From Pristiophorus japonicus (Eukaryota): DNA of 64,000 bases. Numbering within the stretch: the first letter of the stretch is position 1; the number at the start of each line of letters is the position of its first letter. This document shows positions 3,829 to 63,904 of the stretch, one piece after another. The notes beneath the pieces were generated by a model. It saw nothing but the letters and a program-made list of their open reading frames with translations. It made no database searches and was not told the DNA's origin. A program made the translations under genes and the position numbers. The stretch covers positions 130,200,001-130,264,000 of the forward strand of contig NC_091980.1 in the NCBI RefSeq assembly GCF_044704955.1. Reading direction: 5' to 3'.

Positions 3829-4417
3829 AAACCAGGGGAGGATGAGTGGAGCAATGGTTTGGAGGCCATGCAGAGAGCTCTGCAGATGGAGAAGAATGTG
3901 AACCAGAGTCTGCTGGATCTGCACAAACACTCCACTGGGAACACTGACCCTCATGTAAGTTTCCGAATGCTTCAATGTGGGCTTTTGGTTAATTGCTGTC
4001 CTTGAACTTAATTTAAAGATATCTGCCCAATAGCTTTCTGTTGGGTCTATTTCAGGGAAGATTTTGTCAGTATCTGATCCCAGCACATTTTTGCAAAGCA
4101 AGTTTTCATCTAAATGATGCAGTAATTCCATCAATTTCAATTGCACCACTTAACTATCCTCCAGTCCAAGAGGACTAAAATCCCAACTCTCAAGCAGTAA
4201 GCTCCAATGTTCCTTGATATCTGCTACTGGCCATAACTCCTTTCTGTTTCTCCTTCAGTTGTGTGACTTCCTGGAGACCCACTACTTGGATGAACAAGTG
4301 AAGATGATCAAGAAGCTTGGAGATCACATCACCAACCTGAAGAGACTGGGAGCCCCTGAGAATGGCCTGGGAGAGTACCTGTTTGACAAGCACACCTTGG
4401 GGGAGAGTGTCTTCTGA
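3829..4417 (+). CDS. Ferritin heavy/middle-type subunit, copy A (type 1), exons 3-4 only; exons 1-2 presumably lie upstream of the window
   Basis: Exon 3 3829-3954 [42 protein letters not shown]. Exon 4 4259-4417 [56 protein letters not shown] sites intact; AATAAA 4524-4529. Coding status of the whole gene cannot be judged from this window. Confidence 0.88.
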
Positions 4418-4979
4418 TCAGTACTTGTGTTTATACAATATGTGTGAGACTCTGTCCTACATAGAATGGTGGCTTTGTACAGGCTGAGGCCTGGGCTCTT
4501 GATGTGAAATGTAATCAACTGTAAATAAACTGTTCAACATTGGACTGGGTTTTGTCTCCTTGCAATTAGTGGTTGCTTATTTTCCATTGACCATAACTTG
4601 TTTGCAGCACAAGTATTGCACTCGGTTATGCAACAATCATACATTGGCCTCCTGTGCTGTCACCACTCAGCTGGCTCTCCAAGTACACTTCAGCTAGTCC
4701 TACTCCCTTGCATTTTCCCTATAGCCCTGCAATGTTTTTCCTTCATGTACTTGTTCAATCCTATGATTGAAACTGCTTTCACCACCGTCTCAGGCAGTGC
4801 AATCCAGATATTAACCACTCACTGCATAAAAGTTTATCCTCATGTCAGCTGTGGTACTTCTGCCAATTGTCTTAAATTTGTGTCTGCAGGTTCTCATCCC
4901 TTCTGCCAGTGTGAACAGTCCTATAATTTTGCTCTTTGCTGGGATAATTTCAATATATTGACATTTTATATTCACAAAA

Positions 4980-6850
4980 GCATAAATAGGAGCAGTCGTC
5001 GCCCATTTGGTCCTTTAAAGTCTGCACCGCCATTTAATATGATAATAACTGATCCTTTACCACCACCATGTTCATGCTTTTACCCCATAGCCCTTGATGC
5101 CTTTTGAATCAAGATAACTCATCTCCTTCTTAAATATATTCAGCAACTGGGCTCCACTGCCTTCTGTAGTCAACAGTTCCTCAGCTTCCCCATCCTGACT
5201 GAAAACATTTCTCATCTCAGCGCTAAATTTCCTACCGCATATCCTGAACCTGTGACCTTTTATTCTCAACTTCCCAGCCAGGGGGTACTTCCTCCCCACA
5301 TCCAATCTCCAAACCAGTCTGAATTTGATGATTCAATAAGATCCCCTTTCACTCTTGTGAATACAGGCCTGGTCAAGCCATTCTCTCTTCGTACGACAAT
5401 CTTTCCATCCAAGGAATCAGTCTGGTGGAACTTCGCTGTACTCTTTCTTGGTTAAGGAGACCCAAAACTGTGCACAATACACCAGGTGTAATTTCACCAA
5501 GGCTGTGTATAATTGTAAGACATCCTTGCTCCTGTACTGTGGAAAAATTGTAAATATTACATTTGGTTTCCTCCTCCAAATCTATTTATGTGACTAGCTG
5601 GGGCCCAAGCACTGATCCCTGTGGTATCCCACTCGTCACTACCCACCACCAAGGCAAAGACCTGTTTAGTCCGACTCGGTTTTCTATCAATTAACCAATT
5701 TTCAATCCATGGCAGTATATTACCCCCAATTCTATGTGCTTTAATTTTGCACACTAACCTCTTGTGGGACTTTATCAAAGGCCTTCTGAAAATCCAAATA
5801 CATGACATCCACTGGTTCTCCCTTATCTAATCTCAGTTACATCCTCAAAAATCTCCAGTAGGTTTGTCAAACACTATGTTCTTTTCATAAATCCATATTG
5901 ACTTTATCTAATCCTGTTGATTTTTTTCAAAGTGTCCCTTTATCACATTTTACTAATGTTAGGCTAACCAGGCTGCAGTTACCTGTTTTCTTTCTCCTTC
6001 CTTTTTAAAATAGTGGAGTTACATTTGCCACACTCCATTCTGTGGCAACAGTACCATAATCTGTAGAAATTTGGAAGATGATAACCAATGCATCCACTAT
6101 TTCCATGGCTACCACTTTTATTCCTCTGGGATGCAGATTATCAGGCCCTGGGGATTTATCAGCTTTCAGTCCCATTAGTTTCTCCAGCAGTATTTTGTTC
6201 CTAATCATTCCCTTTAATTTCTCTTGCTCACTGGACCCTTAGTTCCCTAGCATTTCTGGGATGTTATTTGTGTCCTCTTCTGTGAAGACAGAACCAAAGT
6301 ATTCAATTGTTCTGCCATTTCCTTGTTCCCCATTATAAATTATCCCATTTGTGACTGTAAAGGACCTACATTTGTCTTCATTAATCTTTTCCTTATTACA
6401 TACTGGGAGAAACTTTTACAGTCGGTTTTTATGATCCTTGCAAGTTTAGTCTCATACCCTATTTTCCCCCTCTTAAACAATCTCTTGGTCCTTTTTTGCT
6501 GAATACTAAACTGCTCCCAATCCTCAGGATTGCTACTTGTTCTGGCAACTTTATGACTTCTCTTTGGATTTAATACTATCCTTAATTTCTTGTGTAAACC
6601 ATGGTTGGGCCACTTTTCCTTTTGTGTTTTTGCAGCAGAAAGGAATGTATAATTGTTGCAATTCATGCATTTGTTCCTTAAATGTTAGCCATTGACTATC
6701 CACCATTCTGCCTTTTAATGACTCTTACCAATCACTTTCAATCTTCATGAAGAATTCCATCATGTTATCATTCTTCCCTTAAGGACCCTGCACAAAAAGA
6801 ATATTAATTAACCCCTTCTCATTGCACAATACCCAATCTACGATAGCTAT
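4980..6850 (-). mobile_element. CR1-type LINE ORF2 remnant
   Basis: Minus-strand fragments LKADKSPGPDNLHPR, WSVANVTPLF, HKRLVCKIKAH..IGGNILPWIENWL, KAKVAQPWF-like; fragmented. Confidence 0.85.
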
Positions 6851-6888
6851 TCAGACAAGTTGAAGACCTAATTTCAATTATACGTATA

Positions 6889-62059: not shown

Positions 62060-62160
62060 GTTAATTGGTGCCTCAATTCCTGATTGGCTCTGAGGGATTG
62101 TCAATCATCATTGGTGATGTCATACCCTGTTTGACTGCAGCTGTTCCAATAGTATAAATA
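62060..62160 (+). promoter_or_regulatory. Core promoter of ferritin copy G
   Basis: ATTGG at 62064 and 62083, TGATGTCA at about 62115, TATAAATA 62153-62160. Confidence 0.62.
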
Positions 62161-62228
62161 TAGGAGCTTGTGCAAGACTGTGTGAGTTTCAGAATTGTGC
62201 AGAGGATAGTGAAATATAGATAGTGAAG

Positions 62229-63904
62229 ATGGCTTCCCAAGTGTGTCAGAACTACCACAAGGACTGTGAGGCTGCTGTCAACAAGCATATCAACATGGAG
62301 CTCTGTTCCTCCTATGTTTATCTCTCCATGGTGAGTTGTGTATTCCTTGTTGCTGCATTCTGAAAAGTTGTTAATTCTCCAGTTCAATGAATTGGCTTTA
62401 TGTTGTATTTCTCTGGACTTCCTTCCCTGGGGGAGCAGAATCTTTGGGCAGTGAGAACTTCAGGTGTGTAATACAGGGGATCTTGTTGAGTTCATGGACT
62501 GCTCCTGACAGCAGCTGCCCTCTATTGAGGTTTAATATTGGAAACCAGCTCAGCTGCTGCCTGAGTGTGTGACAGAAGAGCACAAACCTGGTCAGGGGCG
62601 TGTTGACCTGAAACAATGTTCAGTTTCAGTGGGGGACTGCAGTGAGTGAAATGTGGGTAGGTTCTCATTAGTGCTCTCATTAATTGGAGGTGATGTACTG
62701 AGAATCCTGCTGTTGGAGCCCTGCTCACTGCTGAGATCTCTTGCACTATTGTTGTGTAAACTACTGGAGTGGAGGATTTTTCTCACTCCATGTCCAAACT
62801 TTGATTAGAATGGAAGAATAATCATTTCTATAATGCCTTTCACTACCTTGGAATATCCAAAGTGCTTTGTAGCCAATGAAGGAGTTAAGTGTAGTTACCT
62901 GTTATGTGGGAAATGCAGCAGCCAATTAGTGCACAGGATGCTCCCACAAACTGAAATGAGATAATGATCAGATCATCTGTTTTCGTGGTGTTGGTTGAGG
63001 GATAAATATTAGCCAGGACACTGCAGAGAGCTCTCTGCAGTAGTATTTAGAACATGGAGAAGGCTTGAGGAACCAATGGCTGACTCCAGTCATTCACTCA
63101 GATCATTGCTAATCTTGTACCTCAACTCCACCTCCTGCACTGTCCCCATATCCTTTGCTATCCAAAAGTCTATTGCTCTTGAATATACTCTGACTGGAAT
63201 TCTCTACCCCAGGAGTTGTGGAGGCTCAGAGTCATCACATTGAGTTTAGAAATTCCTCCTCATCTCAGTCCTCAATGACCCCTGGTTCTTGACTCTCCAG
63301 CAAGGGGAACCATCCTCCCTGCATCTAATCCTTCAAGTCCTGTAAGAATTTTGTACATGCCTAATGACATCACCTCTCATCCTTCGAACCTTGAGAATAG
63401 AGGCTCAGTCTGCTCAATCTCTCCTCCTTGATCTTTCACATGCACCTGATGACTGACACACTCTTGTGTGAATGACACAGTAGAGGAGGTATTGCTTATC
63501 CAGGAGTAGAATTTAGTTTGACTGGACATTAAATATAATCCTGAACTTTAGTTTTATATGTTCAACCAGCAAAGGAAAAACTTTCATCATGCTATGGGGA
63601 GGTGAGGCTCAACTCCAATTGATGAAGTCAATGGCATTTTGCTAGTTTACAAATGGTGTCTATCTTTTTAAGAATTCATTCATTCTGTGGAAAAATAACT
63701 CTTGCATTGTATATGAAGATCAAGGTCTAAATAGGCTGTCTTAATTTCTCTCTGCAGTCGTTCTATTTTGACCGGGATGATGTTGCCCTGTGTCACTTTG
63801 CTGAGTTCTTCAAGGAGCAGTCACATGAGGAACGTGAGCATGCTGAGAAACTGATGCAATTCCAGAATCGCCGTGGAGGACGGATCATCTTGTCTGACAT
63901 CAAG
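62229..63904 (+). CDS. Ferritin heavy/middle-type subunit, copy G (type 2), exons 1-2; continues beyond the window
   Basis: Exon 1 62229-62330 [34 protein letters not shown]; exon 2 63758-63904 [49 protein letters not shown]; splice sites intact. Confidence 0.9.

Follow-up and report, generated by a model that had tools for sequence, protein, structure and literature searches.

Ferritin genes in the window

The window analysed here is a stretch of 64,000 nucleotides from Pristiophorus japonicus (assembly GCF_044704955.1, contig NC_091980.1, hereafter C4, positions 130,200,001–130,264,000), and it lies inside a tandem array of intron-containing ferritin genes. When the four exons of copy B were mapped across it, seven ferritin copies, A–G, were located on the + strand, with exon lengths of 102, 147, 126 and 156 nt as mapped in copy B and with GT–AG introns wherever these are unmutated. 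Near the window, an X type (intron 1 of about 2.8 kb) and a Y type (about 1.43 kb) alternate, with a broken Z type between them. The copies are the following.

3829–3954 (exon 3) and 4259–4417 (exon 4), + strand: copy A, X type, intact, from exon mapping and flanking DNA; exons 1 and 2 lie upstream of the window, from C4:130,195,653, and AATAAA stands about 110 nt past the coding end
11985–12086, 13510–13656, 13873–13998 and 14360–14515, + strand: copy B, Y type, open, decayed; TATA at 11909
24383–24484, 27324–27470, 28062–28187 and 28504–28659, + strand: copy C, X type, pseudogene
32603–32695, 34620–34766, 35174–35299 and 35661–35814, + strand: copy D, Z type, pseudogene
42237–42338, 43777–43922, 44165–44290 and 44661–44818, + strand: copy E, Y type, pseudogene
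52926–53027, 55812–55958, 56573–56698 and 57005–57160, + strand: copy F, X type, intact; TATA at 52843, poly(A) signal AATAAG
62229–62330 (exon 1) and 63758–63904 (exon 2), + strand: copy G, Y type, intact; TATA at 62153, gene end at C4:130,264,792, beyond the window

A first-pass annotation of the window had described seven same-strand, four-exon copies over this span, and this is borne out. The spacing of 8–12 kb that it gave holds for the gene starts from B to G (8.2–12.4 kb) but not for A to B (16.3 kb). Open frames are present in four of the seven copies (A, B, F and G). Copies A and G had been taken for partial genes, whereas the flanking DNA shows both to be whole and intact, with their remaining exons beyond the window edges. 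Copies C, D and E are disabled, as had been stated, by stops, deletions and frameshifts: copy C has three stops and a damaged TATA box and 5' untranslated region, in copy D, exon 1 lacks 9 nt, exon 3 contains a stop and exon 4 has lost 2 nt at its start, and copy E has two frameshifts, one from 1 nt missing at the exon 2 end, after which the frame terminates early, and one from 2 nt inserted into exon 4. Copies B and F had both been regarded as complete and open; F is intact, but B, although open, is CpG-decayed and is probably dying, because it differs from the family majority at 24 residues, including six changes of Arg to Cys or Trp at CpG codons, and has the lowest observed/expected CpG ratio (0.017) among 58 genes. 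Positions 12001–14000, within copy B, form 2 kb without any CpG, which suggests long germ-line methylation of this copy.

Extent and composition of the array

The array extends past both window edges, as had been supposed, and its copies could be counted across C4. Most of the 150 scored matches to the ferritin family PF00210 lie on C4 at 127.8–133.4 Mb. Genome-wide, a 20-mer from exon 2 has 196 exact matches and a 20-mer from exon 4 has 328 with at most one mismatch, against none for the reversed control pattern in either case; the positions listed are the first 100 for each. Because the exon-4 pattern gives 328 matches, recovers 78 of 81 sampled exon 4s and is expected to have about a dozen of its matches outside the array, the array comprises about 330 copies over about 5.6 Mb of C4 (127.78–133.41 Mb). 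The earlier count of at least seven copies is correct as a minimum but about 50-fold too low for the array. The outermost genes that were located stand at C4 127,780,390 and 133,405,859, and no further ferritin gene occurs in the 45 kb (left) and 124 kb (right) read past them. The array changes strand several times.

The composition of the array was sampled in ten blocks (1.094 Mb) picked where genes were known to lie, the 81 copies of which are 29 intact, 43 broken, 6 partial and 3 cut by a block edge; three of the broken copies are altered only near the C-terminus. By extrapolation, the whole array would hold about 110–140 intact copies. A density-based estimate of 450 copies was rejected, since the sampled blocks had been chosen for holding genes.

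Ferritin type and phylogenetic position

The window exons match PF00210 and encode frames of 176 residues that start like cytosolic H and M chains, and no N-terminal signal peptide was seen in the array proteins, as judged by eye. The residues that we take to form the ferroxidase site (E27, Y34, E61, E62, H65, E107 and Q141 in human H numbering) align in the same columns as those of the pig H chain, and by these residues the array proteins are predicted to be ferroxidase-type (H/M-type) subunits; the site, which is lost in L-type chains, is intact in the array. With four exons, 176 residues, the ferroxidase residues and a cytosolic N-terminus, the copies resemble vertebrate H (FTH1) and amphibian and fish M ferritins (PF00210), and the best solved-structure matches of their proteins are frog and human ferritins. 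The genome also has an H gene on C14 and an M-like gene on C19, each single and each with a 5' iron-responsive element (IRE), unlike the array copies, which lack the element and occur in hundreds. The M-like gene belongs to a second ferritin locus.

C19:93,049,144–93,203,519: ferritin cluster of eight genes, four of them of the array type (three clearly broken, one doubtful), the others being the M-like gene, two diverged genes and an L-like gene

In this cluster, the two diverged genes have altered ferroxidase-site residues and no Rfam IRE, and the L-like gene (93.19 Mb) has an altered site and no IRE match. A RUVBL-like gene at 91.49 Mb lies on one side of the cluster and a glycogen synthase gene at 97.45 Mb on the other; in mammals, FTL neighbours RUVBL2 and GYS1. 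Four array-type genes thus sit at an FTL-type locus, yet the main array is on C4, and the array family probably arose at the FTL-type locus.

A protein tree was built from 58 of 102 rows, with 19 array copies, 24 database proteins and one badly broken C19 gene left out. The array proteins form one clade with shark and ray proteins named 'heavy chain B-like' or 'oocyte isoform-like' (SH-aLRT/UFBoot 96.4/99), and the clade that includes two chimaera proteins has support of 97.2/100. The C14 gene clusters with the H proteins of skate and chimaera, and the array proteins fall outside this H clade and are not FTH1 orthologues. They belong to the non-H part of the tree (89.2/96) and also stand apart from the C19 M-like and L-like genes; the deeper nodes of the tree are weak. 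The phylogeny with H, M and L subunits that had been recommended therefore assigns the array to a separate cartilaginous-fish clade. The shark and ray entries of RefSeq/UniRef called 'ferritin heavy chain B-like', 'oocyte isoform-like' or 'higher subunit-like' belong to the same clade; these names are automatic, inconsistent between copies and attached to no function. The closest such proteins are labelled Pristiophorus japonicus, at up to 93% to a retrocopy query.

Relatives of the array fall into RefSeq/UniRef 90% clusters that have between 69 and 180 members; these come from several sharks and, for each species, mostly from a single chromosome (15 members were listed per UniRef cluster). 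The family is multicopy in at least ten named shark species from several orders, with relatives in rays and a chimaera, and the clade of the array includes white shark proteins; no Greenland shark sequence is among the 120 protein matches listed. On the evidence of the tree clade and the large multi-shark clusters, the family is old and widespread, and the proposal in the first-pass annotation of a lineage-specific family has to be given up, shark clusters being also in print.

Loss of the iron-responsive element

Rfam IRE matches are found at the C14 H gene, at the C19 M-like gene and at one H retrocopy, and there are none in the window, at the remaining C19 ferritin genes or at six further array loci. 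The canonical IRE loop is present in none of 59 array upstream regions, so the 5' IRE expected of an FTH1 orthologue is missing from the array copies. A remnant pattern occurs in 26 of the 59 regions, and for 28 the alignment to the C19 IRE reaches p ≤ 0.05 in comparison with shuffled sequences. The remnant loop is CAAAG or CAAGG where the canonical loop is CAGTG, the upper stem is broken, and Rfam does not recognize the best-aligned remnant even with the threshold relaxed to E = 10. The window contains one of the remnants.

32564–32580, + strand: IRE remnant 5' of copy D, loop CAAGG, with local alignment to the C19 IRE giving p = 0.03 (200 shuffles)

Where a TATA box is retained, it stands in most copies 62–107 nt upstream of the ATG. 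That this result is absent from print is not established, as no literature search aimed jointly at sharks and the iron-responsive element was made.

Selection and birth-and-death evolution

Selection was assessed in 58 four-exon genes, 27 intact and 31 broken, by pairwise comparison and by counts of private and shared changes. Non-CpG changes were counted, the neutral expectation for the ratio of nonsynonymous to synonymous changes (N/S) was 2.8, as derived from the intron mutation spectrum, and the counts are non-independent across related genes. Pairwise dN/dS (the ratio of nonsynonymous to synonymous divergence) is 0.27 in the intact genes and 0.44 in the broken genes, below the value near 1 for all copies that, together with a lack of transcription, had been named beforehand as the finding that would refute the proposal. 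Shared changes are purified both in intact genes (N/S 57/65, 0.31 of neutral, p = 3 × 10^-10) and in broken genes (96/84, 0.41 of neutral), whereas the private changes of broken genes look neutral (152/39 plus 13 stops, 1.39 of neutral, p = 0.07).

Divergence at four-fold sites is similar to that of introns (8.3 and 8.1%, respectively, in eight intact X-type genes; 8.9 and 8.6% in eight intact Y-type genes), and second codon positions diverge by 1.7% (X type) and 2.9% (Y type), three- to five-fold below four-fold sites. Exon-limited gene conversion was considered and left no sign, given this similarity of four-fold site and intron divergence. All seven ferroxidase-site residues are kept in 26 of the 27 intact genes (A, B, F and G among them) and in 18 of the 31 broken genes (Fisher p = 0.0006), and the protein is nearly uniform across the array, with no sign of diversifying selection. 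The array thus combines many pseudogenes, purified survivors and paralogues diverged at silent sites, as expected of birth-and-death evolution, and the birth-and-death evolution proposed in the first-pass annotation is upheld: the substitution patterns support long-term purifying selection, neutral decay after gene death and some relaxation in copies that are still open.

Retrocopies and past transcription

Twelve dispersed loci were checked: eight are array-type sequences lacking the intron at one or more of the splice junctions they span, three are derived from the H gene and one consists of exon 4 only. Two array-type retrocopies begin about 42 and 45–53 nt before the ATG, as the position of the TATA box predicts, and one Y-like retrocopy ends near an A run. 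Spliced array-type retrocopies show that X-like and Y-like genes were, at some time, transcribed and spliced in the germ line or the early embryo. A splice-junction pattern gave seven array-type and three H-type places, with 2 and 170 for the controls; four of the seven were checked, and no rate is drawn from these numbers.

Proposed role of the array

We consider it fairly probable that the locus is a dosage-amplified, IRE-free oocyte ferritin array that turns over by birth-and-death. Unequal crossing-over would, as we infer, add and remove gene pairs and blocks of 130–260 kb. The short IRE-less messages would escape repression by iron regulatory proteins (IRPs), so that the amount of ferritin made would depend on transcription and on how many genes there are. 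The intact copies would provide the ovary or oocyte with bulk ferritin independent of iron, and the predicted cytosolic 24-mers would there oxidize iron and keep it in the large, yolk-rich egg as a store for the embryo. As single copies would be dispensable, many would decay, while selection would keep a pool of roughly 110–140 working genes. A dosage-dependent or oocyte role had been suggested before, and it gains support here from selection, copy number and retrocopies; the ovary expression comes from a preprint on other sharks. The roles in immune iron withholding and in metal handling that had also been suggested received no support.

Several points weigh against this interpretation. The array in this genome is known from DNA sequence alone. 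We infer the loss of IRP binding by its messages from established IRE biochemistry together with the noncanonical loop and broken upper stem. The retrocopies point to germ-line or early-embryo transcription in either sex, not to ovary specificity, and the statement about the ovary is one sentence on another species, the Greenland shark, whose cluster is possibly orthologous to this one. Broken or partial copies make up 49 of the 78 sampled non-edge copies, and broken genes duplicate alongside intact ones. Private changes in intact genes are weakly purified (N/S 52/28, 0.66 of neutral, p = 0.10), and part of the 'intact' pool may therefore be dying, as B seems to be.

The last two points lend themselves to a different explanation, in which the copy number brings no dosage benefit: the few genes that are needed would lie where unequal crossing-over readily occurs, and the hundreds of copies would be a drifting by-product. 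It would account for the breakage of over half of the sampled copies, for private changes in intact genes that do not differ significantly from neutral and for the amplification of pseudogene lineages (the Z type, and one with a lost exon-4 acceptor) and of an intronic retroelement. However, shared changes are purified across many lineages, which requires that many copies have long been under selection, and many-copy families persist in sharks of several orders; we regard this explanation as unlikely. Less likely still is somatic protection against oxidative stress or ferroptosis, or the withholding of iron from pathogens, as proposed for fthl27 of the hadal snailfish, the tandem ferritins of which are described as expressed in most tissues and as lowering reactive oxygen species in transfected cells (PMC10746142). 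A suggested ferroptosis link in the Greenland shark is cited in a further paper (PMC13701976), and IRE-less ferritin would also fit stress-driven transcription, but the shark cluster is reported to be ovary-specific (bioRxiv 10.1101/2024.09.09.611499), the family is expanded across sharks of differing habits, and the near-uniform protein has no trace of diversifying selection.

If the oocyte ferritin array is taken as the preferred interpretation, a wider one may be put forward tentatively, with slightly more doubt than confidence. A third, dedicated ferritin lineage may have arisen in cartilaginous fishes before the chimaera–shark split; it would have lost IRP control by decay of the IRE and been amplified to hundreds of copies in sharks, like histone or rRNA genes, loading iron into very large eggs; it would be an oocyte-made vertebrate counterpart of invertebrate yolk ferritin, mislabelled FTH1 and FTL in annotations. 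Vertebrate ferritin is the textbook case of few genes under iron-driven translational control, and hundreds of IRE-less, catalytically intact copies under selection across sharks would represent a different kind of iron management, by gene dosage, and would open the maternal supply of iron to yolky eggs to direct test. Shark ferritin counts are a poor candidate for a species-specific trait, as in readings that concern longevity or ferroptosis, because many sharks share the expansion, more than half of the copies here are broken and expression is reported to be ovary-specific.

Comparison with known ferritin clusters

The existence of large shark ferritin arrays is already in print, in the one paper on the expansion in sharks that our literature search found, and the gain of this study therefore lies in classification and mechanism. 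The Greenland shark is reported to have 155 FTL and 179 FTH1 copies, in clusters syntenic with those of the white shark, and its largest ferritin cluster is described as ovary-specific in expression (bioRxiv 10.1101/2024.09.09.611499). Like the array on C4, these clusters contain hundreds of copies; according to the passages of the preprint that concern them, the main cluster spans about 4 Mb with about 220 annotations and is common to distant sharks. They differ in that their copies are labelled FTH1 and FTL and are more than 85% full length, whereas here there is one clade, about 37–45% intact, and the C4 copies sampled correspond to neither the H gene nor the L-like gene. The same passages contain no tree, selection test or IRE analysis, and the main text of a second Greenland shark preprint does not mention ferritin (10.1101/2025.02.19.638963).

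The egg association proposed here resembles that of the yolk ferritins of snails and schistosomes, which arose independently. The yolk ferritin of snails is a secreted, imported protein, unlike the shark array protein, which has no signal peptide. A later report is said to describe an 'FTH1b' expansion in the Greenland shark; our literature search did not find it. Ferritin mRNA is described as abundant in fish ovary and eggs in a paper that also cites yolk ferritins and, by its title, a study of schistosome ferritin mRNAs without IREs (PMC1488847). The hadal snailfish has a 14-copy fthl27 tandem array (PMC10746142), which is likewise a tandem amplification of ferritin in fish, but it is described as species-specific and broadly expressed and is about 20-fold smaller.

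Integrity of the assembly

It is very improbable that the array is largely an assembly artefact, arising from falsely duplicated haplotypes or repeated reads, even though two pairs of 100-kb blocks elsewhere in it are nearly identical, since the window copies are about 9% apart in introns within a type, lesions differ between copies and similar families occur in other sharks. Within types, intron 1 divergence has a mean of 9.2% and a minimum of 1.6%. The nearest paralogue is 98% alike for intron 1 of F and 93–94% for intron 1 of B (the best 40 candidates being scored for each, and all matches listed being on C4), and 96.7% alike for the F–G stretch. Duplicated haplotypes, which had been named as the finding that would overturn the array, are therefore rejected for the window copies, as intron identity to any paralogue found is at most 98%.

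The near-identical blocks, each at least 100 kb long, are those at C4:129.05 and 129.31 Mb (99.88% alike, 62 substitutions in 99 kb, offset about 261 kb) and at C4:132.80 and 132.93 Mb (99.79% alike, 147 substitutions in 100 kb, offset about 129 kb). They may be recent segmental duplications or false ones, with a possible inflation of some tens of copies, and the second block of each pair was left out of the selection tests. Gaps of 200 N flank the array at C4:127,773,469 and 133,440,795, each adjoining C/G-rich simple repeats, and a gap on C19 at 92,920,037, near its array-type genes, is followed by about 45 kb of a 30-bp satellite. The idea that the array was mis-scaffolded onto C4 is unsupported: one and the same satellite runs in register on both sides of the left gap, and the right gap is uninformative.

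Repeats, mobile elements and neighbouring genes

The left part of the window is occupied by a mobile element.

1–3715, − strand: right-hand part of a long terminal repeat (LTR) retroelement in intron 2 of copy A, with an RVT_1 match and a reverse-transcriptase frame at 1187–2086

The whole element is about 4.55 kb, with direct terminal repeats of roughly 210 nt. The same insertion site in intron 2 is occupied in six sampled X-type copies, five of which are intact, with elements 86–97% alike; the element was amplified together with the gene and does not seem to be disabling. A 33-bp minisatellite of six to seven copies occupies the same spacer position 3' of X-type genes (10081–10294, 31783–31978 and 60278–60521), and reverse-transcriptase fragments are found in the spacers before C and F (21574–23098 and 50151–51577). 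A GC-rich insertion at 36805–39701 has terminal direct repeats of about 225 nt, and its frames have no Pfam match. At the left edge of the array (C4:127.788 Mb) there is a 5S rRNA-like sequence. Vertebrates usually have two glycogen synthase genes; this genome has three intron-containing ones (C19:97.44–97.51, C14:168.54–168.66 and C13:66.40–66.45 Mb), two of which lie within 2–4 Mb of a ferritin locus.

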